Shown: positions 9,336-59,057, numbered from the stretch's first letter. The stretch is DNA of 64,000 nucleotides from a virus (IMGVR_UViG_3300012665_000990:1-64000), one strand, 5' to 3'. Notes: a model not told the origin generated them from the sequence alone. Numbers and translations: made by a program.

Positions 9336-9944
9336 ATGAGTTTAGTACCAATTGTAGTTGAAAAGACCAGCGCCGGAGAACGCAGTTATGACATTTTCAG
9401 TCGCTTGCTTAAAGACAGGGTTATCTTCTTTAACGGTGAAGTTGAAGACTATATGGCCAATTTAATTGTTGCCCAATTGCTATTTTTGGAAAGTGAGAAT
9501 AGTGATTTGGATATTCATATGTACATTAATAGTCCTGGCGGCGTAGTCACTGCTGGTATGAGCATTTATGATACAATGCAATTTATCAAGCCAGATGTTT
9601 GTACATACGTTATGGGTCAAGCCTGTAGTATGGGCAGTTTGATTGCACAAGCCGGTGCTAAAGGCAAGCGTTATATGTTGCCAAATGCTCGTCATATGAT
9701 TCATCAACCAAGTGGTGGTGCTCGAGGACAAGCAACTGATATGTTGATTCAAGTTGAAGAGATTCTGGCAATGAAAAAGAATCTAACAGAAATTTACGCA
9801 AAGCATAATAGTCAAGGCAAGACATATGAAACTTTGAGTGCTGACATGGAAAGAGATAAATTCATGAGTGCTCAAGAAGCTCTCGATTATGGGCTAATTG
9901 ACCACATTGTGGACAAAAGGCCAAATGGTAGCACCAGCGTATAA
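9336..9944 (+). CDS. clpP: ATP-dependent Clp protease proteolytic subunit
   Basis: [25 protein letters not shown] (catalytic Ser), IHQPSGG (His), MERD. Confidence 0.97.
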
Positions 9945-11010
9945 TAGTAGCCAGTTACTAAAAAACATACGTCTAGATCAACTAGACATCAAAAGAGGTG
10001 AGCTTTCCGGAAACTTAATATCTGGAGGGCTTATCTCTGCCTTTGCATCTACAGGTATTAAAGACGATGCATCAGTACAAACTTTAATCATTGAAGATGG
10101 TCGCATCATTGTTGACAAAATTACTGTTAAAGAAATTGATAGCAATTTAGTAATATCTGGAAAACTAAATGTATTAGGTGAGTTAACTGCTACTAAAATT
10201 ACTGCTGATGAAATTTTTAGTAATCAAAAATACGATAAGCAATATATTGAATTCATTCCAAACGCACAAACACAAAGTACAATTGGCTCTGGATTCGTTT
10301 GGAAGGATGCAGGTCCTACAAGGATGTTTGTACTACGTCCAGAACCTGAACGTTTTTTCTCTAGTGAAAATATTGACATTAGAGATGGTAAAAACTACAG
10401 CATTGGTAATGTCAATGTGTTGTCCTTCAACCTACTTGGACCAACTGTTAAGAAAAGTAGTCTAACTGAAGTTGGCACACTAAAAGATTTAACTGTAAAT
10501 GGTGACACTGTATTGGGTGGGTTTGCTACATTTAATAGTGACTTACAGCGTATTGGTATTAACACTGATCAACCAGTAGGTGTATTAACACTGACTGATT
10601 TTGAACAGGATGTAATTTTAAATTTAGAAGTAGAAAATGGCCGTGCAAAAGTTGGCACATTTAATAACCGTCCTTTTGAATTAACTGCGGGAGATCTGGC
10701 ACTCGTCACATTAGAGCCAAAAGGCATTGTTAATATTGGGCATGAATACAGAAGTGACATTACCACTAGAGCATGGGGCAAGTTAGGTATCAATGTAAAG
10801 CATCCTGAAGAAGATCTAGAAGTACGTGGGAATATTCGTTTTAGAGAAAAACTTTTCGCAGTAGATAATTCTCCGCCAACTAAAGGTAACTATAAAAGAG
10901 GGGACATAGTTTGGAATGAAAATCCGGACGCTGGCTCTTTTATTGGCTGGGTATGTGTAGTCGCAGGCACACCTGGCATATGGAAAACTTTTGGAGCGAT
11001 CAGTGAATAA
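9925..11010 (+). CDS. Beta-rich protein with tail-fibre-like C-terminal module
   Basis: C-terminus [40 protein letters not shown]; RIGINT/KLGINV repeats. Confidence 0.6.
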
Positions 11011-13634: not shown

Positions 13635-13642
13635 TATAAATA
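13635..13642 (+). promoter_or_regulatory. T4-type late promoter
   Basis: Exact TATAAATA 5 nt upstream of SOD ATG. Confidence 0.6.
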
Positions 13643-13647
13643 CAGAC

Positions 13648-14196
13648 ATGTATAATTTTATCAAAAACTTAACTGAAGGGCGAGATTTAACAGAGTTAAA
13701 AAGAATTACTCTAAACTATTCATCTGATGGATTAGGACGTAGTTTGAGTAAGCAGGCTATTGATTATCATTATGGTAAGTTATACAAAACCTATGTTGAT
13801 AGATTTAATAACAATGAGGGCGACTCAGACTTTAATGAAGCGGGTGCCTTTTTACACAGCATTTACTTTAGCCAATTTAAATCACCTGTTAGTTCAAATA
13901 AACCAATAGATGAATCACTTGCATTTATTGAAGAGCATTATCAAACATTTGATAACTTTAAAAAAGAGTTTGAAAAAACTGCAATGAGTATTCAAGGCAG
14001 TGGTTGGGTGTATCTAGCTCGTGATGGTAAAATTAAAACTATCAAAAATCATGAAATTAAAAATGATATATTGTTATTAATTGATTGGTGGGAGCATGCC
14101 TGGGCACTAGACTATCAAGCTGATAAAAAGAAATATTTAGAAAATCAATGGAAAATTATTGATTGGGAAGTTATTAATCATAAAAAGAGAGGTTGA
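13648..14196 (+). CDS. sod: Fe/Mn superoxide dismutase
   Basis: Metal ligands in HYGKLY, FLHSIYF, DWWEHAW; QGSGW. Confidence 0.92.
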   Translation: MYNFIKNLTEGRDLTELKRITLNYSSDGLGRSLSKQAIDYHYGKLYKTYVDRFNNNEGDSDFNEAGAFLHSIYFSQFKSPVSSNKPIDESLAFIEEHYQTFDNFKKEFEKTAMSIQGSGWVYLARDGKIKTIKNHEIKNDILLLIDWWEHAWALDYQADKKKYLENQWKIIDWEVINHKKRG

Positions 14197-42424: not shown

Positions 42425-43051
42425 ATGAGTTTTACTTTTGATTTTACACTAAACAAATTTACAGAAATTATTGGGAAAAATCCTTATGCTGATCATTGGT
42501 TTGACGCATTATGTGAAATTCTTCCAGACTACGATATTAATACTCCAGAACGTGTTGCGGCTTTCCTAGCACAAACAGCACATGAGTCAGGCGGATATCG
42601 TGCTATTAAAGAAAATTTAAATTATAAAGCAGCCAGTCTACGCAAAGTATTTCCTAAATATTTCCCAACAGATGAATTGGCGGCACAGTACGCACAACAG
42701 CCAGAAAAGATTGCTAACCGTGTTTACGGAAATCGTATGGGCAATGGTCCAGAAGAATCAGGCGATGGTTTCCGTTATTGTGGTCGTGGTCTTATTCAGT
42801 TAACTGGTAAGGACAACTACACACGTTACGCACAGAGTTTGGAGATCAGTGTTGAAGAAGCACAAGAACATTTGACAACTTTTGAAGGTTGTGTACAATC
42901 AGCGGCTTGGTTCTGGGAATCAAATAACTTAAACCAGTGGGCAGACAAGGGCGACATCCTTACACTAACAAAACGCATTAACGGCGGTACAATTGGATTA
43001 GAAGATCGTATCAAGCATTATAATCATGCTTGCCATGTATTAGGAGCCTAA
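42425..43051 (+). CDS. Glycoside hydrolase family 19 endolysin
   Basis: AQTAHESGG, ENLNY, YCGRGLIQLTGKDNY, SAAWFW, TKRINGGTIGLEDR. Confidence 0.93.
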   Translation: MSFTFDFTLNKFTEIIGKNPYADHWFDALCEILPDYDINTPERVAAFLAQTAHESGGYRAIKENLNYKAASLRKVFPKYFPTDELAAQYAQQPEKIANRVYGNRMGNGPEESGDGFRYCGRGLIQLTGKDNYTRYAQSLEISVEEAQEHLTTFEGCVQSAAWFWESNNLNQWADKGDILTLTKRINGGTIGLEDRIKHYNHACHVLGA

Positions 43052-45360: not shown

Positions 45361-45399
45361 AAAAGGCAGCTTGACAGTTGCCTTTTTTTGTTATATAAT
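45361..45399 (+). terminator. Terminator hairpin with TTGACA loop serving as -35
   Basis: AAAAGGCAGC-TTGACA-GTTGCCTTTTTTT; TATAAT 17 nt after TTGACA. Confidence 0.75.
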
Positions 45400-45405
45400 T
45401 GTACT

Positions 45406-46254
45406 ATGAAAGACTATTATAAGACTCTCGGCGTTCCTCGAAACGCATCACCAGATGAAATTAAAAAGGCCTACAGAAGCAAGGCAATGAAACATCACCC
45501 TGATCGAGGCGGTGATGAAAAAGTATTCAAAGAAATTAACGAAGCACATGATATACTAAGTGATCCACAGAAAAAATCTATGTTGGATCAAGGAGTAGAT
45601 CCGCTGAATCCAAATCAAGGCGGATTTGGTAATCATGAATTCCATTTTACTACAGGCGGGATGGACGATATATTGCGTGGCTTTGGATTTAACTTTGGAT
45701 TTGGACAAGGACCAAGTTTTCAACAACGCCAACAACCAAGAAATAAATCTTTAAATGTTAATCTAACAATTAGTTTAGAAGAAGCATTTACGGGTGTTGA
45801 AAAAACAATTGAAATACAATATCCAACTGGACGTAAACAAATGAATATTACAATTCCTAAAGGAGTTGATAATGGTATGGCCATTCGTTATTCAGGAATG
45901 GGTGATGATTCAATTAGAAATATCCCTGCTGGAGATTTAACTATTAGCATCAATGTAATGCCACATCCTAAGTTTGCTAGAGAAGGTTTAAATCTTTTAA
46001 CAGATTCAAATATTGATTGCTTTGATGCAATTCTTGGTACTTCGGTAGATATTAGGACATTAGACGGTCGTGTGCTACAATTAGTTGTGCCAGCAGGAAC
46101 GCAAAGTGGAACTACTTTAGGATTGCGTAATGAGGGTATGACAGATCAAGCAGGTAATATTGGTAGGCTGTATGTCAGAGTAAATGTACAAATTCCAACT
46201 GATTTAGATTCAAATGCTATTAACATGGTTAAACATATTAAGGGTATCAAGTAA
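45406..46254 (+). CDS. DnaJ-class co-chaperone (no Zn finger, CbpA-like)
   Basis: DYYKTLGV, HPD motif, G/F region, C-terminal substrate-binding domains. Confidence 0.92.
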   Translation: MKDYYKTLGVPRNASPDEIKKAYRSKAMKHHPDRGGDEKVFKEINEAHDILSDPQKKSMLDQGVDPLNPNQGGFGNHEFHFTTGGMDDILRGFGFNFGFGQGPSFQQRQQPRNKSLNVNLTISLEEAFTGVEKTIEIQYPTGRKQMNITIPKGVDNGMAIRYSGMGDDSIRNIPAGDLTISINVMPHPKFAREGLNLLTDSNIDCFDAILGTSVDIRTLDGRVLQLVVPAGTQSGTTLGLRNEGMTDQAGNIGRLYVRVNVQIPTDLDSNAINMVKHIKGIK

Positions 46255-46763
46255 TGTTGAAAATTGTAAAACATCCAGACCCTATTTTAGAAGAAGTAAT
46301 GCCAGCATTTGATTTTGCTAATCCAATTATGGATCCCAAGCAATTGGAAACAGAGATGTTAGCAGTAATGTTTGCACATGACGGAATTGGCCTTGCCGCA
46401 CCTCAAGTGGGAATTCGAACAAGAGTTTTTACCATGGGCCATATATTAATGAAAGAACAAAGTAATGCGTACTTTAATCCTGAAGTAGTTGATGCTAGTA
46501 CTGATTTACTTGATATAGAAGAAGGGTGTTTGAGTTTCCCAACAGTTTTTGTTAAAATTAAACGACCAAGTTGGATTGTAGGTAAGTATTTTGATAGCGA
46601 AGGCAACGAGCATCAAAATAAATTTGAAGGATATGATTGTAAATGCTTTTTACACGAGCTTGATCATTTAAACGGCATCAATTTTAAAGATAGACTTTCT
46701 ACTTTAAAATGGGCCATGGCAGTTAAAAAATCTAAGAAAGTCAAAGTGAGGAACTATGCTTGA
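46254..46763 (+). CDS. def: Peptide deformylase
   Basis: GIGLAAPQVG, EEGCLS, HELDHLNG. Confidence 0.96.
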   Translation: MLKIVKHPDPILEEVMPAFDFANPIMDPKQLETEMLAVMFAHDGIGLAAPQVGIRTRVFTMGHILMKEQSNAYFNPEVVDASTDLLDIEEGCLSFPTVFVKIKRPSWIVGKYFDSEGNEHQNKFEGYDCKCFLHELDHLNGINFKDRLSTLKWAMAVKKSKKVKVRNYA

Positions 46764-49032
46764 ACCAAATGAAGAGTTAGAAGGTATTTTTGAACGTGCT
46801 GTATTGTTGGCTATCGAAAATAAACATCAATATATTACGTTGGAACACTTTCTACTAAGTTTAGTAAGTGATGAAAAGTTTGGCAAAAAGCTAAATGATT
46901 TTGGTACCGATGTTACAGATTTAAAATTAAATTTGACTAGTTACATTGCAAATGAATTGTCAACTATTGTTAATGAAAATCAAAGTAGCAGACCAAAGAA
47001 AACAAATAGTATTGAACGTATGTTAAATCGTGCGTTTACACAAACATTGTTTGCTGGCCGTACTACTATTGAACCTATTGATTGCTTCTTAAGCATATTG
47101 CATGAAAAGAAAAGTCATGCACATTACTACTTGCGTTTGGCTAAGATTGATAAAGACAAATTTGTAGAGTTTATCAATCAGGAAAACAACACTATTGAAA
47201 ACGGTGAAGAAGCGACTATCCCAGAAAGTAAACTAGAAGCAGTTATTAATAATTTCTGTGTTAACTTGAATAACAGAGTTAAACAAAAGAAAATCGATCC
47301 AGTTATTGGTCGTGAAAAAGAAATTGAAGAGATTCAACTTGTATTGGCACGTAGACACAAATCAAACGTAATGATGATTGGTGATCCTGGTGTAGGTAAG
47401 ACTGCGATTGCTGAAGGTCTTGCTCGTAACATTGTTGAAGGCAAAGTACCAAAGTTTATCGAAGACCACACAGTCTATACATTGGATATCAGTGCGTTAC
47501 TTGCTGGCAGTAAGTATCGTGGTGATTTTGAAGAAAGACTAAAGACTGTACTAACTGCTATTGAAAAGAAAAAGAAAGCTATTCTATTCATTGACGAAGC
47601 ACACATGATGAATGGTGCTGGAGCAAGCAGTGGTCAAAGCAATGACATGGCTAATATGTTAAAACCAGCATTGGCCAAGGGCGGCTTTAAAGTTATTGCC
47701 AGTACTACATGGGAAGAATTCCGCAAGCACTTTGAAAAGGATCGTGCCCTAATGCGCAGATTCCAACGTGTTGTAGTTGACGAGCCAGATGAGGAAACAG
47801 CAATTAAGATCCTTACAGGACTTAAGAAGTATTACGAAAAACATCATGGTGTCAAAATTACCAAACAGGCAATTATCGACAGCGTCAAGTATAGTATCAA
47901 GTACATGAGTGATAAGAAGTTGCCCGACAAGGCAATTGATATTATTGATTGTGCATGTGCTCGTTTTAAGATACGTGACGAAGAAAATGGCACTGTTGAT
48001 CATGACGAAGTAGTTTATGAAGTTGCTAAAATGACTAACTTGCCGTTAGAGCAAGTTGCGGCTAAAGAGACTAAGAAACTTACAAACTTAGAAGATAGTT
48101 TGAAAGCAGAAGTGTTTGGTCAAGAAAATGCCATTGATACATTGCTTGATAAAATTTATATTGCTCAAGCAGGACTTAAATCAGTCAACAAACCAGTTGG
48201 TAGTTTCTTGTTTGTAGGTCCCACTGGTTGTGGTAAAACTGAAACTGCTAAACAGCTGAGTGACAAAATGGGAATTAAACTTGTACGTTTTGATATGAGT
48301 GAGTTCCAAGAAAAACACGCAGTGGCAAAGTTTATTGGTGCACCTCCAGGATATGTTGGCTTTGAAGACAATGCTGGACAATTGATTACTACATTACAAG
48401 AAACACCTAACTGTGTATTGTTATTAGATGAGATTGAAAAAGCACATCCTGATGTTGTTAACGTAATGTTACAATTAATGGATAATGGATTCGTAACTGG
48501 CAGTAATGGTAAGAAAGCAGATGCACGTAACGCCATTATTATCATGACCAGTAACTTAGGTGCCGCAGATAGTGAAAAGAAAAACATTGGCTTTGGCAGT
48601 CAAGAAAAGTTAAGCGAAACTGATACTGCTGTTAATGCGTTCTTTGCTCCAGAGTTTAGAAATCGTTTAGACGGTATTATTAAGTTTAAGAAACTTGGTC
48701 ATAGTGTAATGCTCAAAGTTGTTGACAAGTTTGTGCGTGAAATGAACGAACTAATTTCTGATAAGAATGTGTTTGTACAATTAACAGACGTTGCACGTGA
48801 CTATTTGGTTGAACAAGGATTTAACAGTAAAATGGGCGCACGTCCATTACAAAGAGTAATTGATGATAAAATTAAGAAGCCATTAAGCCGTGAAATACTG
48901 TTTGGTCAATTACTTAACGGTGGAATTGTTAAAGTTGACAAAACAGATGATGGTTTAGTATTTGATTATTTAGATCCTCTACCCGTAGCATTAGAGCCAG
49001 AGGTAATTGAAGATGTCATTTCGGAAGATTGA
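46756..49032 (+). CDS. clpA: ATP-dependent Clp protease ATP-binding subunit ClpA
   Basis: Two AAA+ modules (GDPGVGKT, GPTGCGKT), KYRGDFEER, MGARPL; no ClpB middle domain. Confidence 0.93.
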   Translation: MLEPNEELEGIFERAVLLAIENKHQYITLEHFLLSLVSDEKFGKKLNDFGTDVTDLKLNLTSYIANELSTIVNENQSSRPKKTNSIERMLNRAFTQTLFAGRTTIEPIDCFLSILHEKKSHAHYYLRLAKIDKDKFVEFINQENNTIENGEEATIPESKLEAVINNFCVNLNNRVKQKKIDPVIGREKEIEEIQLVLARRHKSNVMMIGDPGVGKTAIAEGLARNIVEGKVPKFIEDHTVYTLDISALLAGSKYRGDFEERLKTVLTAIEKKKKAILFIDEAHMMNGAGASSGQSNDMANMLKPALAKGGFKVIASTTWEEFRKHFEKDRALMRRFQRVVVDEPDEETAIKILTGLKKYYEKHHGVKITKQAIIDSVKYSIKYMSDKKLPDKAIDIIDCACARFKIRDEENGTVDHDEVVYEVAKMTNLPLEQVAAKETKKLTNLEDSLKAEVFGQENAIDTLLDKIYIAQAGLKSVNKPVGSFLFVGPTGCGKTETAKQLSDKMGIKLVRFDMSEFQEKHAVAKFIGAPPGYVGFEDNAGQLITTLQETPNCVLLLDEIEKAHPDVVNVMLQLMDNGFVTGSNGKKADARNAIIIMTSNLGAADSEKKNIGFGSQEKLSETDTAVNAFFAPEFRNRLDGIIKFKKLGHSVMLKVVDKFVREMNELISDKNVFVQLTDVARDYLVEQGFNSKMGARPLQRVIDDKIKKPLSREILFGQLLNGGIVKVDKTDDGLVFDYLDPLPVALEPEVIEDVISED

Positions 49033-50123: not shown

Positions 50124-50214
50124 TTCATATCCCATTACGTTACAAATAAATACATGATAGATTACTGTCATGTATTTTTGCGTTTCAGTCAAATTAAAAT
50201 GGGTCATATAAATT

Positions 50215-50571
50215 ATGTTTTTAAGAGAATTTTTTAGTCAAAACACAAGCGTTGATAAAGAAGAAGAATCCAGTGAGGAACTATGTAAAGACCTCATGGC
50301 ATATATCTTAGATCATGATGACCTTCATAAGAAATTAATGATCCCTATTCTTAACGATGTTAAGAAAGAAATAGCAAACAAAACATACGACAAGAAAACA
50401 GCCTATAAAAAGTATGACGAACTAGTTGATACAGCCTGTGTAATGTTTTATAAAGATGAAAAACTACAGGGCGACCCAAATAAATTATTCCCTGCCCCAT
50501 TAAGAGTTAAAGTTGCTCGACAATTGGCCCAAATTAACCAAGAGAGTCATAAAGAGCATGAGGATAACTGA
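50215..50571 (+). CDS. Hypothetical protein (MFLREFF leader)
   Basis: First gene of the leader-bearing cluster. Confidence 0.65.
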   Translation: MFLREFFSQNTSVDKEEESSEELCKDLMAYILDHDDLHKKLMIPILNDVKKEIANKTYDKKTAYKKYDELVDTACVMFYKDEKLQGDPNKLFPAPLRVKVARQLAQINQESHKEHEDN

Positions 50572-51574
50572 ACTTTTTGAGGGCGGTTGGGACACTACTA
50601 AAACTCAACAAACTGTATTACATCCAAAGATAGTCAGTGTGGCTCTCAAGGTAGTAGATCAGTTTGTTTCTGATTTCAACAACTATCTAAAAAAACAAAA
50701 TATCCCTCCAATTAAACGTGGAAAGCCTACAGGTAGTAGTGCTTATCATGAACAAGACTCGGTTGAGAGACCTGATGTTATATATGGCGATATTGATTTA
50801 CAAATGATTGGTAATCCTGTAGAAGGATTAACGTATGGTCAATTTACTAGTTATTGGAATGATCTTGCAGACAAATTTGTTACAACAATACATCCGCAAT
50901 ATGTAGACACTAGTGAAAGCAAACCAGGACATCCCATATTTCAAGTTGGTCAAGATCAATACGTACAAGTTGATTTTATGTGGCATGAAGAAAAGATGGC
51001 AGAATGGGGTGCGGCACGTGTAACACCAGAACGTGGAATGAAGGGATTGCTAATGGGCAATATGTTTAGTGTGTTAGGTGAACTGCTAAACATGAGTATT
51101 CAACACGCAGGCGTTCAATTAAAAACAGTAAATGGACAACAAGTACCATTTAGTAAACAAAAAGGTGTTGAAGTTCAAACTCTCAGTATTAACCCAAGAA
51201 CGTTTGTATACGATATCTTCAATTACCTACATCAACAAATTTTAGGTACACCAGCTAAAAAAGTTGATCCTCTGTTAAAACAATTTCCAGGTAACAATAT
51301 TGACGATGTTAAAATTGCCACTATGGTAAATGCTGTTAAAGGCTTTGCTCGTAGTTGCGAGCTAAATCAGATGTTTGGGCAGGGCGCATTAGAGCCATAT
51401 GCTAGTGCAGATGATTTTTTACAAAAGTTTTTAGCACGATACGATGAGAAAGCACAAATTGACATTGCAGGTAAGAAGCGTGACAAAGCAACAACCCCCG
51501 AAGCAATTGCTCGTGCAAATGCAGATCGTGAAAAGATACAAGGTGGTTTAGATATAGTTAAGGGGTTATTTTAA
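50558..51574 (+). CDS. Pol-beta-superfamily nucleotidyltransferase-like protein (MRITELFE leader)
   Basis: PTGSS...YGDIDL plus later VQVDF; start at ATG 50558. Confidence 0.6.
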   Translation: MRITELFEGGWDTTKTQQTVLHPKIVSVALKVVDQFVSDFNNYLKKQNIPPIKRGKPTGSSAYHEQDSVERPDVIYGDIDLQMIGNPVEGLTYGQFTSYWNDLADKFVTTIHPQYVDTSESKPGHPIFQVGQDQYVQVDFMWHEEKMAEWGAARVTPERGMKGLLMGNMFSVLGELLNMSIQHAGVQLKTVNGQQVPFSKQKGVEVQTLSINPRTFVYDIFNYLHQQILGTPAKKVDPLLKQFPGNNIDDVKIATMVNAVKGFARSCELNQMFGQGALEPYASADDFLQKFLARYDEKAQIDIAGKKRDKATTPEAIARANADREKIQGGLDIVKGLF

Positions 51575-52413
51575 TGCGTATTAATGAATTATTATTTGAA
51601 GCAGGGAAAAGACTTGCTAGTCAAGGTATTGAAGTGTCACGTGTTAATAAACAAGACTTTTTAACTGCCAAAGGCGCACTTGACCCTATATTAAAGAAAG
51701 CAGGCATTGTTGGTGGTTGGACTGCTGGCGGTGCTGGAAGTTTTGATCCAGAGCACCCATATGGTGGCGGTGGCAGAGAAGACAGTGGTGACATTGATAT
51801 TATGATTGATCCACAAAATTTAACAAAACAATTTCCTCCAGACATAGAAGCATATAATTCTGCCAGTGCTAAACCAATTGGTCCAAAAGCAATGGCAAAT
51901 GTTCTAGCAGATCCTGCTAAAAAAGCAAAATTAGAAATGAGTTCAAGTAAATGGGCATTAGCTGATTACATGAGCAGAAGTGGATTCCGTACTGACCCAG
52001 GAACACTAACTGTTGAATATGGTGCAGGTGGTAAAACATTTTCAGTAGACTTAATTGTGCGTCCAAAAGAATCATGGGAACTACATACACATGACTTTGC
52101 TAAAGATACAACAATGCGTGGTGGCGATTTATGGATACAGATGTATCCAGTACTGGCTAAACTTGCTAGCCAAAAAACTTTTATTGATCCAAAGACAGGT
52201 GAAGAAAAAGGCAACTTGCAGTTTAGTCCAGACAGAGGCCTAGTAGATAGAGATACCAATCAAGTCATTGCTATTAAGAAAGATGACATTGCTAAAATAC
52301 TATTAGGACCACAAGCAACTGCTAGAGACTTAGCCAGCATGAGTGGTATTAGAGCCGCACTAGCAAAACAGCCGCAAAAGTTATCCCAATTACCCCAACA
52401 GCAAACACAATAA
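51574..52413 (+). CDS. Pol-beta-superfamily nucleotidyltransferase-like protein (MRINELLFE leader)
   Basis: GAGS-x13-GDIDI plus later FSVDLI. Confidence 0.6.
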   Translation: MRINELLFEAGKRLASQGIEVSRVNKQDFLTAKGALDPILKKAGIVGGWTAGGAGSFDPEHPYGGGGREDSGDIDIMIDPQNLTKQFPPDIEAYNSASAKPIGPKAMANVLADPAKKAKLEMSSSKWALADYMSRSGFRTDPGTLTVEYGAGGKTFSVDLIVRPKESWELHTHDFAKDTTMRGGDLWIQMYPVLAKLASQKTFIDPKTGEEKGNLQFSPDRGLVDRDTNQVIAIKKDDIAKILLGPQATARDLASMSGIRAALAKQPQKLSQLPQQQTQ

Positions 52414-52423
52414 ATATAACATT

Positions 52424-54319
52424 ATGTATTTGATAGAACTTTTTACACCATCTCGCAAAGCAATTATGGAAGGCATTGACCATCCAGAAGACCTTATTAT
52501 CTCTCAAGGTAGTACAGGTGCAGATCGTGTTCTAAAAGATTTAGCAAGTTTACAAACAGATCCAAGTACAGTGAGTGTTAAATGGGATGGATTCCCTGCC
52601 GTTGTTTTTGGTCGAGATGAAAATGGTAGTTTAGTATTCATGGACAAGCACATGTATGACAAAGTTGTCAAAGGTGCTATGAGTTTTATGAGTATTAAAG
52701 ATTATGATATATCACGTGATGCAAATCGTGGCGACTTGTGGGAAAAAGAAAGTGTACTAAGACCAGCATTAGAGAAAGCTGTACCAAATGTAAAAAATCA
52801 ATTTTGGATGGGTGATCTAATGTGGACTGGAACTCCGCCAACAAGTGATGGTTATTTTGTATTCAAACCAAACACAGTTGAATATCGTGTACAAATAGAT
52901 GACGGCAAGGGAAATAGTTTAGGTGACAAAATTGCTAGAAGTATTGGCGGTATTGCTGTACACACATATATTCCTGGTATTGGTTCAGGTGATCAACCAT
53001 TAGTAGGATTAAAAGGTTTATCAGAAGATACAGGTGTTGTATTTTTGGTTGGTGAAATGAAAGACAAACCACGTGTCGGAATTAACACAGACCTATTAGC
53101 AGAAACACAAACTATTATTAATAACCATAGAACAGATGTTGATGAGTTTATTAAAGATTTAACAGCAATGAAGGGCAAGGCAGTTATTACTGCTATGGGC
53201 CCTTTCATTACACGTATGCTGGAAGAGAACGATATACAAACTAATATAGTTCCACGCTTCTTAGAATTTTTAAAAGAACGTTTAAATGAAACTGCACAGG
53301 CAAAATTCTTAGGTGCTAATAAAGATGGCTGGTTATATCAAGAAGGTCAAGGCGGACCAGGCTTACTAGGCATTTGGACCATGTGGGCCGCCATTGTTGA
53401 TTTAAAACTGCATATCAAACAACAAATTGATACACAGCAACAAGGTAGTGAAGTTATTGCTATCACTGACGGACTAAATGCACACGAAGGTTATGTGTTT
53501 GGTGCAGGTAAAGACAAATTAAAATTAATTGATCGTTTAGGATTTAGCCGTGCTAACTTTGCTAAACATAAAGTACCAGATGAAGAGATTGCACAAAAGA
53601 GTAAAATGCCTTTGGCAACATTCTGTTTTGGTCGTATGAACCCTCCTACAATGGGTCACGGTTTAGTAATGAACAAGACTATTGAGGCGGGTGGTGAAAA
53701 TTCTTTTGTATTCTTAAGTAATAGTGTTGGTACTGATGATCCATTAGATCCAAATACAAAAGCACAATTCATTGCACAAATTTATCCAGAAGTTGCTAGT
53801 CATATTGTAACTGATTACGTACAAGGTCCAATTTATGCGGCTAATTGGTTATACCAAAAAGGTTATCGCAACATGGCATTTGTTGCTGGCAGTGATAGAC
53901 TAGGCAAAGAAAAAGGCAGTATTGAAAAATTATTAACTAGTTGGAACAGTGGTCCTATTCGTAGCACGGATCCAGCTGGAGCACGTGAACACGTGGTTAT
54001 GCAATATATCAGTGCAGGTCAACGTGATGCTGATGCAGAAGGTGTAGAAGGTTACAGTGGAACTAAAGCTCGGCAAGCCGCAGTTGCTGGCAACGAACAA
54101 CAATTCCAACAATTTACTGGTGTTGGTAATGATGTTATAGTTAACGGAAAAACTTTATACCAAACAGTAAGAGAAGGTTTAGGAATTAAAGATCAAGCGC
54201 AAAAACCTGCGCCAGTACAACAAAAACAACCTGTGCAACAACCTGCACAACAAACACAAGTTACTAAAAAAATTCCTGGTAAGGCACCAGCCAAAGTAGG
54301 AGCAGAGGAACAACTATGA
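52424..54319 (+). CDS. Fusion of ligase-fold (DUF6267-like) domain and HxGH-type cytidylyl/adenylyltransferase-like domain
   Basis: SVKWDG, GDLM, HEGYV, LKLIDR (ligase motifs I/III/IV/V-like); FGRMNPPTMGH and VAGSDR Rossmann motifs. Confidence 0.65.
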   Translation: MYLIELFTPSRKAIMEGIDHPEDLIISQGSTGADRVLKDLASLQTDPSTVSVKWDGFPAVVFGRDENGSLVFMDKHMYDKVVKGAMSFMSIKDYDISRDANRGDLWEKESVLRPALEKAVPNVKNQFWMGDLMWTGTPPTSDGYFVFKPNTVEYRVQIDDGKGNSLGDKIARSIGGIAVHTYIPGIGSGDQPLVGLKGLSEDTGVVFLVGEMKDKPRVGINTDLLAETQTIINNHRTDVDEFIKDLTAMKGKAVITAMGPFITRMLEENDIQTNIVPRFLEFLKERLNETAQAKFLGANKDGWLYQEGQGGPGLLGIWTMWAAIVDLKLHIKQQIDTQQQGSEVIAITDGLNAHEGYVFGAGKDKLKLIDRLGFSRANFAKHKVPDEEIAQKSKMPLATFCFGRMNPPTMGHGLVMNKTIEAGGENSFVFLSNSVGTDDPLDPNTKAQFIAQIYPEVASHIVTDYVQGPIYAANWLYQKGYRNMAFVAGSDRLGKEKGSIEKLLTSWNSGPIRSTDPAGAREHVVMQYISAGQRDADAEGVEGYSGTKARQAAVAGNEQQFQQFTGVGNDVIVNGKTLYQTVREGLGIKDQAQKPAPVQQKQPVQQPAQQTQVTKKIPGKAPAKVGAEEQL

Positions 54320-55536
54320 AAATCACACAAATAATTGAACATAAAAAAGGTGTTCGTGCAGTTAAGGCAACTGTTAAGCCAAGAAACTTTGTTGCTAAAA
54401 ATGCAATTCAAAGTGGTGCTGGGGCACACAAAGATAAAAAGAAAGCAGCCAAACAAGGTGATGTTAAGCACAAAGCCCAATCAGTTGCAGAAGGTATTGG
54501 CGATACAATTTCTACCGTTGCTACAAAAGTTGGCGATGCACTAGCAGGTGCTTTACCAAAAGAATATAGACCTTTTGATAATGATACTGCCGCTAAAAAT
54601 CAACAATCAATGAAAGTGGCTAAAAACGAAAGCAATGCCGAGTACGATGATGAAGCTGGTATGGCTGACAACAATCTTGAAACACTTCGTCGTGCCGTGG
54701 ACGGCATTGACGATGTTATCAATGCAGGCGATAACTTGCCTGAATGGTGTCAAGAAAAGATTGCAGTGGCTAAATCAATGTTAATAGCAGTGTGGGATTA
54801 TATGCGTTCAGAAGAAGAACGTGGCGTAAACGAACAAGTTGGTACCTATTCTAGCAGTAATATGCAAATGTCAGTAGACGGTGCTAGACAACTAGCTACT
54901 ACAGATTTACTTAGAAAAAAATACGGAGACAATTTCCAAGATAAACCAGGAAATGGGATGCACTATAATCAAGAAGTCAAAACAATAGCTGATCCTAAAA
55001 ACCCTGGGAAATATCACTCAACGGTAACATTAAAACCAAAAGATTATACGCTATCACCAAATATATCAGCAAGACCTAGCATGGATCCTAATCAAGACTT
55101 TGATTATTTCCATAAAGGTGAACAACTAAAATCAGATCATCCACTTTTTAATAAAGTTAAGCAGATGCACATTGACAGTTTAAACCCTGTGGCTGAACCA
55201 GATGTAAAAGAATCAAGAATGACAGAAGTATCACGCAACCCAGATACAATGAGCGCAACTGATTATGACCGTTACCAACAAGGTCAAATGGACCAACAAA
55301 AGCGCAATTTCAAACGTGACGAAATGGAACACGAACTTGGCGACGAAGATCGCGGAATGTATTTTGTTGTGATTGCCAAGAATGGTAAATGGGAACATAC
55401 TAAGGCGCAGCCTAGACAAGAAGGTATGAATGCCGCACAAAAAGTAATCAATGCATTACACGCCAAATATCCTAGTATGCATTTAGGTATGCAAGGACCA
55501 GACGGCAAAGTATATAATATGGGTAAAGGCAAATAA
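54316..55536 (+). CDS. Modular probable internal-head protein (MKITQIIE leader)
   Basis: YDDEAGMA..NLPEWCQEKIAVA module; recurring hydrophobic-x-E sites. Confidence 0.55.
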   Translation: MKITQIIEHKKGVRAVKATVKPRNFVAKNAIQSGAGAHKDKKKAAKQGDVKHKAQSVAEGIGDTISTVATKVGDALAGALPKEYRPFDNDTAAKNQQSMKVAKNESNAEYDDEAGMADNNLETLRRAVDGIDDVINAGDNLPEWCQEKIAVAKSMLIAVWDYMRSEEERGVNEQVGTYSSSNMQMSVDGARQLATTDLLRKKYGDNFQDKPGNGMHYNQEVKTIADPKNPGKYHSTVTLKPKDYTLSPNISARPSMDPNQDFDYFHKGEQLKSDHPLFNKVKQMHIDSLNPVAEPDVKESRMTEVSRNPDTMSATDYDRYQQGQMDQQKRNFKRDEMEHELGDEDRGMYFVVIAKNGKWEHTKAQPRQEGMNAAQKVINALHAKYPSMHLGMQGPDGKVYNMGKGK

Positions 55537-55537
55537 G

Positions 55538-55972
55538 ATGGACAAGTATCAATTAGCTCTTAAAACAGCGTTTGCAAGTGAGTATGCATTTGCAATCAAA
55601 GCACAAAACTTTCATTGGAATGTAGAAGGTTCTCTGTTTCCACAACTACACGAGTTGTTTGAAAAAATTTATACAGAAGTTTATGGAAGCATTGACACTT
55701 TTGCAGAGCAATTACGTGCATTACAGATATATGCTCCCGCTAGTTTACAAAAATTTAGTATGCTATCAGTAGTTGAAGATGAAAACGAAATCCTTGAGCA
55801 AGGCGCTATGGTTGGTGAGCTATTAGATGATAGCGAAAAAATGGCTAACATTTTTAAATTAACATTTAGCATGGCTGAACAAGCTGGTGATCATGGGTTA
55901 AGTAACTTTTTAGCTGATCGTCAAGACGCACATAAGAAACACAGTTGGATGCTACGTAGCACGTTAAAATGA
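55538..55972 (+). CDS. dps: Dps/ferritin-like protein
   Basis: FHWNVEG..F..LHELF, DTFAEQLR, HKKHSWML. Confidence 0.92.
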   Translation: MDKYQLALKTAFASEYAFAIKAQNFHWNVEGSLFPQLHELFEKIYTEVYGSIDTFAEQLRALQIYAPASLQKFSMLSVVEDENEILEQGAMVGELLDDSEKMANIFKLTFSMAEQAGDHGLSNFLADRQDAHKKHSWMLRSTLK

Positions 55973-56256
55973 AACAGTATAAGATTACTACAGAAAATTT
56001 AAATCAAGATACAGATGAAGATTGTTATCTTGACAGTAGTGATCCTATACATGAATTAAAAGCAATACAACACTTAGCAGGCCTTAATAGGCATTTAAAA
56101 GAATATAAAGGTTTAGAAGGTAGCAACATAAGTGGGACAGGTAACGAAAAAGGTCAGTTAATGAAGCAACATAATATTAAACCAGGAACTCCAGAATGGT
56201 TCCAATTATGGTTTAGTTTGCCTTATATGACTGGCGAAAAGCCTGTAGGGAAATAA
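55969..56256 (+). CDS. Hypothetical protein
   Basis: IKPGTPEWFQLWF segment; starts MKQYKITTE. Confidence 0.65.
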   Translation: MKQYKITTENLNQDTDEDCYLDSSDPIHELKAIQHLAGLNRHLKEYKGLEGSNISGTGNEKGQLMKQHNIKPGTPEWFQLWFSLPYMTGEKPVGK

Positions 56257-56257
56257 G

Positions 56258-56911
56258 ATGCGTATAACTGAATTATTAGAAACTGTTGCCAAAAAACCTG
56301 AAGAAGTGGATCAGTCCAATCTAGCCACTATACAGGGAAATGTTTACGGTAATGAAAGCGGTTATGGAAAGGCCGATACTACTAAACCAAACTATGCTGG
56401 TGCTTTAGGTCCAATGCAAATACTACCTAGTACATTTGACTGGATGAAACAAGCAAAGATAATTCCAACTGAATATGATATCAATAATCCTGATCAAAAT
56501 AGAGCGGCAGGCGATGCATTGTTAGGACACTATCATAAAAAATATCAAGGCGACCCTGCAAAAGTATATGCGGCGTATTACGCTGGCCCTGGAGCAATAA
56601 ATAAAGATGGAAGTATTAATACTCACTGGAGAGATTTAAAAAATCCCAAAGCACCAACTGTAGGACAGTATATTGAAAAAGCAATGGCTAGAAGTGGTGG
56701 CAACACTAATAGTTTTATGGCGTCAATTAATAATGCGCCAAGTGCTGTTAAAGATTACGTTAGTTCAACATATGGTAGTATCAAAGACTTTGTAAGTTCA
56801 ATGTCAAGGCCAGAAACAACGTTTGATCCAGAAGAAGAAAAACGTAAAGAAGAACTTAAAAAGAAACGCAAGGCATTGGCAGCATTAAAGGCGCAAGGAA
56901 AGACAGCATGA
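56258..56911 (+). CDS. SLT-type lytic transglycosylase (MRITELLE leader)
   Basis: NESG (catalytic Glu), GALGPMQILPSTF, AAYYAGPG. Confidence 0.82.
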   Translation: MRITELLETVAKKPEEVDQSNLATIQGNVYGNESGYGKADTTKPNYAGALGPMQILPSTFDWMKQAKIIPTEYDINNPDQNRAAGDALLGHYHKKYQGDPAKVYAAYYAGPGAINKDGSINTHWRDLKNPKAPTVGQYIEKAMARSGGNTNSFMASINNAPSAVKDYVSSTYGSIKDFVSSMSRPETTFDPEEEKRKEELKKKRKALAALKAQGKTA

Positions 56912-57267
56912 GAATTAATGAATTACTAATTGAAGGCGGCAAATTACGTGCTAGTCAAGAAAACCCAATCAGCAGATTACAAACATTCAATGCACTAAAC
57001 ATGTACAATGGTGACGGATATAAAGCATATCGTTTTGGCGTTGCACTTGCAGGATCGCCCGATGTTAATGTAGAAAACGAAAGTCCATTTGCTGGTGACT
57101 ATACAGTTAAAAGTTATACTGATGAAGAACAAGAAATGATTAATCATGCGGCAAAACAATTAGGTATCAAGGGCTCTACAAAAGCTGGCAATGGCAGTTT
57201 AGAACCTAAAGGCACCAATACTGCTAGTCCAGTAGCAACAATTAAAAAGAACAAATACGGCGTATAA
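56908..57267 (+). CDS. Hypothetical protein (MRINELLIE leader)
   Basis: YKAYRFGVALAG, SLEP..TNTASPV. Confidence 0.65.
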   Translation: MRINELLIEGGKLRASQENPISRLQTFNALNMYNGDGYKAYRFGVALAGSPDVNVENESPFAGDYTVKSYTDEEQEMINHAAKQLGIKGSTKAGNGSLEPKGTNTASPVATIKKNKYGV

Positions 57268-57268
57268 T

Positions 57269-57853
57269 ATGAAGATACAAGAAATTCTATTAGAATTTGA
57301 ACTCCCAGGTGCTCTTAGAGATATACCAGTTGCTAATATATTTGGTGCAACACTCACTGCTGGCCAAATTTCTGATGCAATTCCAGGTGCTGATCCAAGA
57401 ACTGTAATCAAATACGGTAAACAAATTAACGATATTATACAAACTAATATAACACCAAATTATACTGTAGGTAGTGCTATTGCTGATATCGCAGTTGCAT
57501 TGCCAATTGGTCGTGCAATTAAAGGTGCAAAAACTGCAACTCAAGCTACAAGTGCATTAGGCGGAGTTGCCGCAAGAAGAGAACTTGGCAGAGAATTAGC
57601 AAGTAATGTTACACTCATGCCAGGAATGTCAAACTCTTCAGGATCTAAAATTGAACCTGCAAATCAGCAACCAGTTAAAAAGAAAAGAAAAAATGTTGGT
57701 GAAGTTATTCCTGTTCCAATTGGTGGGAAACAGTATAATCTACCAATTATAAAAGTATTACCAAGTTCTGGATACATAGTTGATGCAAGCAAAGTTCCTG
57801 GTAAAAAACCAGGCGAAACAATAGATGCCCCAGAACCAGAGGATAAACTATAA
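57269..57853 (+). CDS. Hypothetical protein (MKIQEILLE leader)
   Basis: Coupled ORF. Confidence 0.65.
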   Translation: MKIQEILLEFELPGALRDIPVANIFGATLTAGQISDAIPGADPRTVIKYGKQINDIIQTNITPNYTVGSAIADIAVALPIGRAIKGAKTATQATSALGGVAARRELGRELASNVTLMPGMSNSSGSKIEPANQQPVKKKRKNVGEVIPVPIGGKQYNLPIIKVLPSSGYIVDASKVPGKKPGETIDAPEPEDKL

Positions 57854-58098
57854 TGCGTATTCAAGATTTATTAGTAGAAGCAGGTAGTGAAGGCGGTACT
57901 ACTACCGCATCATTAGGTCCAGCTAATCCTACTGCTAATTTAAGCCCAGGGTCAGCCCGTGGAAAGAAAAGTTATTTAGGTAGTCCAGGATCAGGGTCAG
58001 GAACTAAAGCACCACCACAGCCAAAGCCAAAAAAGCAAAAACCAACAGATAATGCCCTAGATGGCGATAGTATCTTTGGCACACCGCAAAAACGATAA
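57853..58098 (+). CDS. Low-complexity protein (MRIQDLLVE leader)
   Basis: G/S/P/K-rich; coupled ORF. Confidence 0.6.
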   Translation: MRIQDLLVEAGSEGGTTTASLGPANPTANLSPGSARGKKSYLGSPGSGSGTKAPPQPKPKKQKPTDNALDGDSIFGTPQKR

Positions 58099-58118
58099 AT
58101 AAAGTATCGGAGATTATT

Positions 58119-58967
58119 ATGCCATATAAAACAGCCAAACAGAAAAAAGCAATTGATGCGGCGGCACATAATCCAAAAATAGCTAAAAATTTAGGGATCA
58201 ATATGAAAGATGCAAAGAAAATGTCAGCACATGGCAAAGGACAGAAGTTTAATGAGACTCAAGAAGATCCTCCATTTGACGGTCCGTATTCTAAAGCAGG
58301 AGAAGTTAAAAAAGATCGCTATGGTAACATAATTAAAGATAAAAATATTGCTAAACATTTAGCAAAGAAAGGAAGAGCTGAAGTGGAAAAGACAACAGAC
58401 ACAAAAGTTAAAGAAGCAGTAGTTACTTCTGGTCCACATAAGGGCAAACAATGGAGTCCAAAAACTCCAGGGCCAACAAATCCAAATTTTAAAGATGACG
58501 GATCGATGGGGCCAAGTGATGGAGCCACTGCGCCACCTCCAGGATATAAACCACCAAAACCAAAGTCAATGAAGAAAGCAGAAGTTGGTAGTGATACAGC
58601 AGTAGCAGTAAATGATACTGATGATCAAGAACTAACTGCAAGTATGGAACACAAAGGTAAAAAAGTTAAAGAAGCCAAAAAGAACGATGGTAATTTAGCT
58701 AATAATGCTAAACCATATGACAAGGTCACACGCGGTGATGTTATTGCTGGTCGTTTAGGTAAAGACGAAATGGGCGGTAAGAAAAAGAAAGTCAAAGAAA
58801 GTACAGAAGCTCAATTACTACGCATTGCTAAACAAGCAATGGATACAGTTAAAGCGTTGAGAGAAGCTAAACAAGAAGCGGCACGTATTAAACACATGCC
58901 AATTTCCGAAAGCGATGAATACTTTGCAGGCTTACAATCACGTTTGAACAAACAAATTAAAGGTTAA
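58119..58967 (+). CDS. Basic low-complexity probable internal-head protein
   Basis: TAAATA upstream; three KVKE repeats; NNAKPYDKVTRGDVIAG module. Confidence 0.6.
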   Translation: MPYKTAKQKKAIDAAAHNPKIAKNLGINMKDAKKMSAHGKGQKFNETQEDPPFDGPYSKAGEVKKDRYGNIIKDKNIAKHLAKKGRAEVEKTTDTKVKEAVVTSGPHKGKQWSPKTPGPTNPNFKDDGSMGPSDGATAPPPGYKPPKPKSMKKAEVGSDTAVAVNDTDDQELTASMEHKGKKVKEAKKNDGNLANNAKPYDKVTRGDVIAGRLGKDEMGGKKKKVKESTEAQLLRIAKQAMDTVKALREAKQEAARIKHMPISESDEYFAGLQSRLNKQIKG

Positions 58968-58977
58968 TCCTTTTTAT

Positions 58978-59007
58978 ATAGGGCAACGTTTATCTTGCCC
59001 TATTTTT
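58978..59007 (+). terminator. Intrinsic terminator closing the late cluster
   Basis: ATAGGGCAA-CGTTTATC-TTGCCCTAT-TTTT. Confidence 0.8.
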
Positions 59008-59028: not shown

Positions 59029-59057
59029 TTGACACCAGTACATAATTACGCTATAAT
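59029..59057 (+). promoter_or_regulatory. sigma70-type promoter for replication genes
   Basis: TTGACA-17nt-TATAAT. Confidence 0.8.

Follow-up and report, generated by a model that had tools for sequence, protein, structure and literature searches.

A 64,000-nucleotide stretch of viral DNA (IMGVR_UViG_3300012665_000990:1-64000, hereafter the window) carries a set of tightly coupled genes, from 50215 to 58967, in which proteins with unrelated bodies begin with near-identical short peptides. We found that this leader occurs in the contig only at the starts of genes in this locus, and that in related loci it comes and goes as an add-on to the proteins behind it. The leader is likely a capsid-targeting propeptide of the bacteriophage T4 type carried on a late operon. 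As it is the same kind of clip-off peptide as that of T4 head proteins, at least eight unrelated proteins of the locus are probably packed into the capsid. The principle is established T4 biology, which is extended here to a giant T4-type lineage and its operon. The leader-bearing genes are the following (aa, amino acids; pI, isoelectric point).

50558..51574, + strand: 338-aa Pol-beta-superfamily nucleotidyltransferase; leader MRITELFE at 50558-50581; predicted mature start GGWD
51574..52413, + strand: 279-aa protein with the Pol-beta nucleotidyltransferase motif G-S ... D-x-D; leader MRINELLFE at 51574-51600
52424..54319, + strand: 631-aa two-domain enzyme, DUF6267 plus a putative HxGH 'cytidylyltransferase-like' domain; 16-aa leader at 52424-52471, with I-M-E before G-I-D-H-P-E-D
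54316..55536, + strand: 406-aa basic protein; leader MKITQIIE at 54316-54339
56258..56911, + strand: 217-aa lytic transglycosylase (SLT domain); leader MRITELLE at 56258-56281
56908..57267, + strand: 119-aa basic protein; leader MRINELLIE at 56908-56934; mature pI 8.8
57269..57853, + strand: 194-aa basic protein; leader MKIQEILLE at 57269-57295; corresponds to the 5' half of one undivided gene in relatives
57853..58098, + strand: 81-aa very basic low-complexity protein; leader MRIQDLLVE at 57853-57879; 3' half of the split gene; mature pI 10.1

Seven adjacent + strand genes (50558, 51574, 54316, 56258, 56908, 57269 and 57853) begin M-[RK]-I-x-[EDQ]-[LI]-(L/F/I)-(x)-E, and each leader lies at the first ATG of its own open reading frame (ORF), 2-18 codons past the preceding in-frame stop. 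A strict regular expression, run over all six reading frames of the complete 73,775-bp contig to which the window belongs, returned exactly these seven sites and none elsewhere. The leader is thus found in 7 of the 12 locus genes compared with 0 of 84 other genes (Fisher p = 6.6e-8). A position-specific scoring matrix trained on relatives was then applied with a threshold of 14 bits; this level was reached by 7 of 99 contig N-termini, all of them in the locus, and by 0 of 496 internal Met sites. Scanning ORF N-termini therefore confined the motif, within the contig, to the locus. The two-part 16-aa form on 52424 brings the total to eight, compared with seven leaders of 8-9 aa, and all eight end in L-F-E, I-I-E, L-L-E, L-I-E, L-V-E or I-M-E. 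Altogether, 97 distinct leader sequences were recovered, and the residue following the terminal Glu (P1') is G, A or S in 66% of 108 distinct leader-plus-flank strings from the lineage.

The similarity ends with the leader. After removal of the first 20 residues, the 12 locus proteins gave no pairwise BLASTP match below E = 1, and alignments of the full-length proteins were confined to residues 1-7 to 1-24. The profiles of the 338-aa and 279-aa families are likewise unrelated (hhalign probability 0.9%). The claim of the first-pass annotation that near-identical leaders precede unrelated bodies thus held for all seven genes, each at the position given for it. The additional variant leaders that it proposed fared unevenly: the one on 52424 was retained as a two-part form ending in I-M-E, the one on 50215 is uncertain for want of a clear cut, and MKQYKITTE on 55969 was rejected, because relatives have E, K or D at position 9 and the residues before it include no hydrophobic pair. 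Leader codons differ between genes, at most positions, and the 50 nt upstream are dissimilar, showing that conservation is at the level of protein and not of a copied DNA cassette. In the AlphaFold2 (AF2) model of the 338-aa protein, the leader is the sole low-confidence part (predicted local distance difference test, pLDDT, <50 for residues 1-11) and is, as modelled, disordered.

The contig that contains the window has a CheckV completeness of ~21%. The jumbo phages Phosso, Atu_ph07, SCTP-2 and 121Q have family-B DNA polymerases 42-50% identical to the one encoded on this contig. In metagenomes, homologues of the 338-aa protein form ~700 clusters (90% identity), and the contigs that encode them reach 354 kb. 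Together, this kinship and abundance indicate that the window is a fragment of an abundant uncultured lineage of giant T4-type phages. For comparison we used 92 related loci from two scans of IMG/VR (loci labelled L, larger relatives labelled G). G008 is a complete 322,512-bp genome with terminal repeats and carries a syntenic locus; G011 (214 kb) encodes a homologue of the 338-aa protein that is 70% identical to that of the window.

Across the window and the 92 loci, the leader was kept in nearly all members of ~10 unrelated families and was never present in 69 of 80 families. Among the listed homologues of the 338-aa protein, ~100 of 120 start with the leader directly before GGWD, and 19 have an extra module between the leader and an [LIV]-x-E↓GGWD joint (the arrow marks the boundary after Glu). 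Such inserted modules, GNAT-like acetyltransferases or other small ones, were seen in P0042, P0044, P0065, P0071, P0047, P0068 and P0114. The leader of 54316 is present in every homologue found in G011, L001, L002, L007 and L009, and homologues of 56908 start with MRAKEFI-x-E. Within the 279-aa family, homologues have either the leader or a shortened M-x-[IL]-x-E start; distant ones (~30% identity) are leaderless and start with MSGNALKKLG, which is exactly the predicted mature N-terminus. The DUF6267 homologues of cyanophages S-PM2 and P-HM2 are also leaderless and begin at the body, and many DUF6267 proteins elsewhere have a leader-like start together with [LIV]-x-E just before the domain.

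Gene fusions and splits follow the same boundaries. In L004, L010, L012 and L014, 51574 and 52424 form one gene of 882-1116 aa, with L-L-E, L-M-E, L-I-E or I-A-E before G-I-[DE]-H at the joint. In these fusions the linker (I-K-E-F-Y-P ...) is similar to the opening half of the 52424 leader. Similarly, L002 and L007 encode a single protein of 267-271 aa that covers 57269 and 57853 and reads P-L-D-E↓S-A-T-A-G at the joint; in the window, where the gene is split, 57853 has a complete leader in place of this joint. Since split halves have their own leader and joints keep [LIV]-x-E, each separate polypeptide appears to need its own tag, with Glu as the conserved boundary. Judged from these sequences, this is the behaviour that a targeting-plus-cleavage signal would predict. 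The tag had been described as portable, and it is indeed absent from distant homologues, regained at gene splits and kept as a joint at fusions.

Within the larger relatives, 7 of 8 high-scoring leaders of G011 lie in the locus, as do 3 of 5 in G008, where another lies beside the head module. Canonical leaders on single genes outside the locus were seen in G008 at 210325-210942 (- strand), beside the head module, and in G011 at 51461-52006 (+ strand), among signal-peptide genes. G001 (227 kb) has one convincing leader gene only, showing that the array is not universal among relatives.

The leader is of the same type as the propeptides of T4 head proteins. The T4 capsid-targeting sequence (CTS) of Alt and of the internal proteins (IPs) IPI, IPII and IPIII is reportedly removed by gp21 (work ascribed to Mullaney & Black, 1996). 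The gp21 protease cleaves after L/I-x-E, and the 10-residue CTS of IPIII suffices for head targeting (PMC9026906). T-even phages have diverse internal proteins with only the CTS in common (PMC3012670), and Alt and the IPs, which bear such leaders, are injected (PMC3012670, PMC9026906). The T4 N-termini compared here were taken from record NC_000866.

T4 gp24: MAKINELLRE↓S
T4 gp21: MNEPQLLIE↓T
T4 gp22: MLKEQLIAE↓A
T4 Alt: MELITELFDE
T4 IPII and IPIII: MKTYQEFIAE↓A
T4 IPI: two-part, MKTFKEF ... I-T-E↓A

In both phage groups, a short N-terminal peptide is common to unrelated proteins and ends in [L/I]-x-E before a small residue. The composition is also alike: MKTYQEFIAE and MELITELFDE of T4 can be set beside MRAKEFI-x-E of the relatives and MRITELFE of the window. 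Both have a long two-part form, as the 16-residue leader of 52424 (M-Y-L-I-E-L-F ... I-M-E↓G) mirrors that of IPI. T4 Alt provides a precedent for enzyme cargo, and the lineage has a gp21-type protease. The shorter leaders of the window, at 8-9 residues compared with 10 in the T4 CTS, come closest in consensus to the gp24 propeptide (K-I-N-E-L-L-x-E). One conserved 8.7-kb operon encodes the cargo of the window, whereas that of T4 is encoded in scattered hypervariable loci. The predicted cargo of the window includes large multi-domain nucleic-acid enzymes and a muralytic enzyme, and relatives link several modules into polyproteins whose joints bear the cut motif. Among the propeptides of gp24, gp21, gp22, gp67 and gp68, which all end in the gp21 motif, gp24 MAKINELLRE and gp21 MNEPQLLIE are closest to MRINELLIE/MKINELLIE. 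These T4 proteins are shell, protease and scaffold components, whereas the window proteins are non-homologous to them and mostly enzymes.

The relatives encode the head genes with which such a leader would work. Peptidase_S77 is encoded in G008, G011, G009 and G001, which all carry the same locus, and in G008, G011 and G001, the three in which its neighbouring genes were read, the protease adjoins the scaffold gene. These last three also encode a capsid protein, confirmed by Pfam as gp23-family in G001. In G008 and G011, the scaffold starts with M-L-D-A-F-K-x-L-x-E↓S and the capsid protein has ...A-L-L-E↓G near its N-terminus. Internal copies of the cleavage motif were also counted. In the bodies of the window's leader proteins, [LI]-x-E occurs 2 times compared with 7.9 expected from composition (P = 0.015), in contrast to all other proteins, with 216 observed and 180.5 expected. 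The leader-protein bodies of relatives gave 4 compared with 9.8 expected in G011 and 0 compared with 3.8 in G008.

We further examined the enzymes behind the leaders. The 338-aa protein (50558) gave an AF2 model with pLDDT 88, which Foldseek matched to DNA polymerase beta and lambda, then to cGAS and CdnC (best E = 1.8e-4, template-modelling score 0.33); in alignment A1, G59, S60, D78 and D80 of the G-S ... D-x-D motif are invariant. In alignment A2, G52, G55, S56, D73, D75 and D79 of the 279-aa protein (51574) are invariant, and from its motif this protein is predicted to be a Pol-beta-type nucleotidyltransferase as well. The 631-aa protein (52424) matched Pfam DUF6267 (E = 2.2e-32) and PHROG cytidyltransferase families (E = 2.8e-33 and 1.1e-19), and in alignment A3 of 47 sequences K37, D39, G40, E339, G340, K351 and R355 are invariant (K-x-D-G, E-G and K...R). 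The AF2 model of its DUF6267 domain (pLDDT 93) retrieved RNA or DNA ligases as all of the top 24 rows of a VIA-wide search (Z 8.1 to 5.2), including 5cot (Z = 8.1) and T4 Rnl1 (Z = 6.6). A Foldseek search with the same model was not significant, and the assignment to the ligase superfamily is therefore based on VIA-align and the motifs. The C-terminal domain, to which the PHROG cytidyltransferase matches belong, contains a T-M-G-H motif and had no Pfam, NCBIfam or PDB-sequence match. The 217-aa protein (56258) scored 57.2 bits against Pfam SLT PF01464 (cut-off 21.3), with the N-E-S, G-P-M-Q and A-Y-Y-A-G motifs present, and its PHROG matches include 'internal virion protein with endolysin domain'. 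The three kinds of cargo named by the first-pass annotation are thus all recognizable: a nucleotidyltransferase from the Pol-beta-type fold of 50558 found by Foldseek, a ligase-fold enzyme from the superfamily membership of 52424 with its invariant K-x-D-G motif, and a transglycosylase from an SLT domain above the Pfam cut-off in 56258.

The slot of 56258 is occupied in L002, L007 and G011 by a leader-bearing GH19-like protein instead of SLT. The window has a leaderless GH19-like putative endolysin at 42425-43051, adjoining small holin- or spanin-like genes, and its paralogues in L002, L007 and G011 are the longer, leader-bearing proteins in the SLT slot.

The other four genes of the locus and the elements around it are as follows.

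50215..50571, + strand: 118-aa acidic protein with N-terminus MFLREFF; possible variant leader without a clear [LI]-x-E cut
55538..55972, + strand: Dps/ferritin-like protein, leaderless; Pfam Ferritin E = 3.4e-19
55969..56256, + strand: 95-aa conserved protein starting MKQYKITTE; this start belongs to the body
58119..58967, + strand: ORF of a 282-aa basic protein, leaderless, last of the unit
50146..50152, + strand: ATAAATA box resembling a late-promoter core, in the gap that separates the first operon gene from the preceding one
50148-50177: 13-bp hairpin overlapping the first ATAAATA box
52410..52416, + strand: ATAAATA box, 8 nt before the 52424 start
58095..58101, + strand: ATAAATA box; the last gene begins 18 nt further on, behind a GGAG ribosome-binding site
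58978..59003, + strand: intrinsic terminator closing the unit
59029-59057: perfect TTGACA-17-TATAAT promoter for the next gene, after the terminator

The N-terminus of 50215 is kept in relatives as MLLREFF, MKLLEFF or MKLFEFF, and a similar start, MFLREFIYF, is found on a small protein encoded between portal and protease in G008 and G011; 50215 itself had no Pfam or PHROG family. For 54316, 56908, 57269 and 57853, Pfam and PHROG gave no known functional family, the sole family match of 54316 being 33 residues to phrog_1359, a family of unknown function. The Dps-like gene 55538 stands mid-operon, and it is conserved and leaderless in all relatives examined; NCBIfam Dps models matched it below their cut-offs. 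The last gene, 58119, weakly matched the N-terminal part of a PHROG 'cytidyltransferase' family, and its homologue in L007 has an N-terminal DUF3008 domain.

The genes from 50215 to 58967 are closely coupled and lie between the hairpin and the terminator. With the ATAAATA boxes, this fits a unit expressed late, together with the virion genes. The ATAAATA sequence is a good candidate for the late-promoter core of the lineage. It was observed 9 times in the window compared with 31.4 +/- 5.5 expected (~3.5-fold depleted), always on the + strand, on which almost all window genes lie, and mostly a short distance ahead of a gene start. In G011, 23 of 28 boxes lie within 80 nt upstream of starts on the same strand, including those of tail-fibre and head genes. 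All three locus boxes keep their positions in G011, and the 50146 box keeps its place relative to the locus in G008 as well; in both relatives, boxes also precede tail-fibre and head genes. The TAAATA late elements reported earlier to flank the region are thus better described as ATAAATA boxes at 50146, 52410 and 58095, and the terminator reported at 58978 was found at 58978-59003. Two other promoter candidates were rejected: the window's single copy of the exact T4 late box TATAAATA, at 13635, is outside the locus, and TATAAATT, which abuts the ATG of 50215, is too close to it, so that the box at 50146 was preferred. A sigma-70 scan gave sites no commoner than in shuffled sequence. The TATAAATA copy at 13635 lies 5 nt before a 182-aa ORF (13635-14196) that starts M-Y-N-F-I-K-N-L-T-E↓G; this ORF had no PHROG family, and its N-terminus scored below the leader threshold.

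Directly 5' of the locus, at 45388-49032, lie DnaJ-like, peptide-deformylase-like and ClpA-like genes, and the contig also encodes ClpP-like (9336-9944) and ClpX-like (9898-11010) genes. In L001, L007, G008 and G011, too, ClpA is followed by the locus and then by the DNA polymerase.

Several observations weigh against a capsid-targeting propeptide on a late operon. The contig of the window (~21% complete) has no protease, scaffold or capsid gene, and the link to the protease therefore comes from relatives at 60-70% identity, the head proteins of which bear only looser versions of the leader. Three genes of the unit, 55538 (Dps-like), 55969 and the last gene 58119, have no leader. With P = 0.015 in the window, the depletion of [LI]-x-E is modest; the three genomes do not count as independent, and the 615-residue body of 52424 is not depleted (6 sites). 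Finally, ATAAATA also precedes some non-structural genes, such as the DNA polymerase of G011, so that the boxes do not prove late timing.

The peptide could also be a prohead-core propeptide on proteins that stay in the head or act in its assembly, as core or scaffold accessories or in DNA condensation, with none delivered to the cell. T4 gp21, gp22, gp24, gp67 and gp68 have such N-termini and none is injected (PMC5694885), several locus products are small, basic and of low complexity like core or internal proteins, and the MFLREF-like start in G008 and G011 belongs to a protein encoded between portal and protease. However, ligase-like, nucleotidyltransferase and lytic transglycosylase enzymes have no obvious role in the prohead, T4 Alt and the IPs bear such leaders and are injected (PMC3012670, PMC9026906), and the swap of SLT for GH19 in one slot fits a muralytic domain used in cell entry. 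We therefore regard a role confined to the head as unlikely.

Still less probable is that the N-terminus addresses some other phage machine, either as a degron or chaperone tag for Clp or DnaJ or as a leader for a modifying enzyme. The DnaJ-, peptide-deformylase- and ClpA-like genes directly upstream, with synteny kept in four relatives, would suit such a tag, but it would leave unexplained the invariant terminal Glu, the L, I or V at P3, the small P1' residue, the [LIV]-x-E at fusion joints and the match to T4 gp21 substrates. Met-Arg and Met-Lys starts are not known as N-end-rule substrates of ClpS/ClpA, which counts against a degron. Pfam, PHROG and NCBIfam found no modifying enzyme in the locus; a tag of the radical-SAM type, or of the type used for ribosomally synthesized and post-translationally modified peptides, was considered and rejected, as no such enzyme was found there. 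It is very improbable that the peptide is functionless, a by-product of recombination or of translation-initiation context in which a gene-start cassette was copied. T4-type phages do shuffle genes at conserved regulatory cassettes (PMC2839356), and coupling within the locus is tight, with stop codons overlapping start codons. Against copying stand the differing codons and unrelated upstream DNA, the retention of the peptide where bodies are 60-98% identical, the diversity of the leader sequences and the existence of leaderless homologues.

A capsid-targeting propeptide also invites comparison with other head-delivered proteins. The ejection proteins of phiKZ, 201phi2-1 and SPN3US belong to giant phages in which a gp21-related protease cleaves many proteins of the head interior after Glu, and the propeptides have been inferred to direct proteins to the prohead (PMC5694885, PMC7411985). 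Their motif, unlike that of the window, is S/A-x-E or A-x-E, their propeptides often exceed 100 residues, and the phages form another lineage, which has a virion RNA polymerase and lacks a gp22-type scaffold. T7 gp16 and other SLT internal virion proteins (phrog_342) carry an SLT domain in the head for entry, as is predicted for the window; they are large core proteins without a cleavable CTS, whereas the window has a 209-residue SLT enzyme behind an 8-residue leader. The relatives of the window also recall the polyvalent proteins of phages and conjugative elements (PMC5512222) in stringing together effector-like domains that are probably delivered with the DNA and cut apart. They differ in that their joints match the head protease motif, and the genes of the window itself are mostly single-module.

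Cultured phages gave few matches. The leader pattern occurred at 0-1 starts in Atu_ph07, Phosso and 121Q. In the cultured Salicola phage SCTP-2 (440 kb; MF360958.1 208780-214398, L147), seven adjacent genes, 213-219, start with M-K-[IV]-N-D-[IL]-L-x-E; they lie near the large terminase gene and are all annotated as hypothetical. As they are paralogues, they carry no information on leader portability. The DNA of 50200-58100 had no match among 50,697 phage records, tblastn of the 338-aa protein against cultured phages found none, and homologue searches with the 406-aa and SLT proteins gave marginal matches only. PDB sequence searches with five locus proteins or domains returned nothing below E = 0.19, NCBIfam gave nothing for the locus enzymes, and we found no paper on this lineage or operon.

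Taken together, these results point to the following scheme. The genes from 50215 to 58967 would form one unit, probably transcribed late. Each leader would dock its protein onto the scaffolding core of the assembling prohead. There, a prohead protease of the gp21 type would cleave behind the terminal Glu of [LI]-x-E, with G, A or S as the next residue, freeing the mature protein inside the head. The cargo would consist of two Pol-beta-type nucleotidyltransferases, the ligase-superfamily plus HxGH enzyme, a lytic transglycosylase and several small basic proteins, of which at least a part may leave the head with the DNA, by analogy with the T4 IPs and Alt. More tentatively, the operon might encode a pre-loaded kit for nucleic-acid repair or counter-defence. 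A plug-in leader would direct the kit to the capsid, the head protease would trim it at modular [LIV]-x-E joints, and injection together with the genome would let it act before phage gene expression. The predicted parts of such a kit would be a PolX-like or CCA-adding-like nucleotidyltransferase, an RNA/DNA-ligase-like enzyme, an NMNAT-like HxGH enzyme and a wall-cutting enzyme.

If the leader is a capsid-targeting propeptide, a simple N-terminal motif would mark the head-loaded proteins of an abundant uncultured lineage of 320-350-kb T4-type phages, and candidate injected proteins of uncultured giant T4-type phages could be listed from their genomes alone. The cargo would be unusual in comprising ligase-superfamily and Pol-beta-type enzymes together with a swappable muralytic enzyme, and gene splitting and fusion in this lineage would occur at the sites of the head protease.

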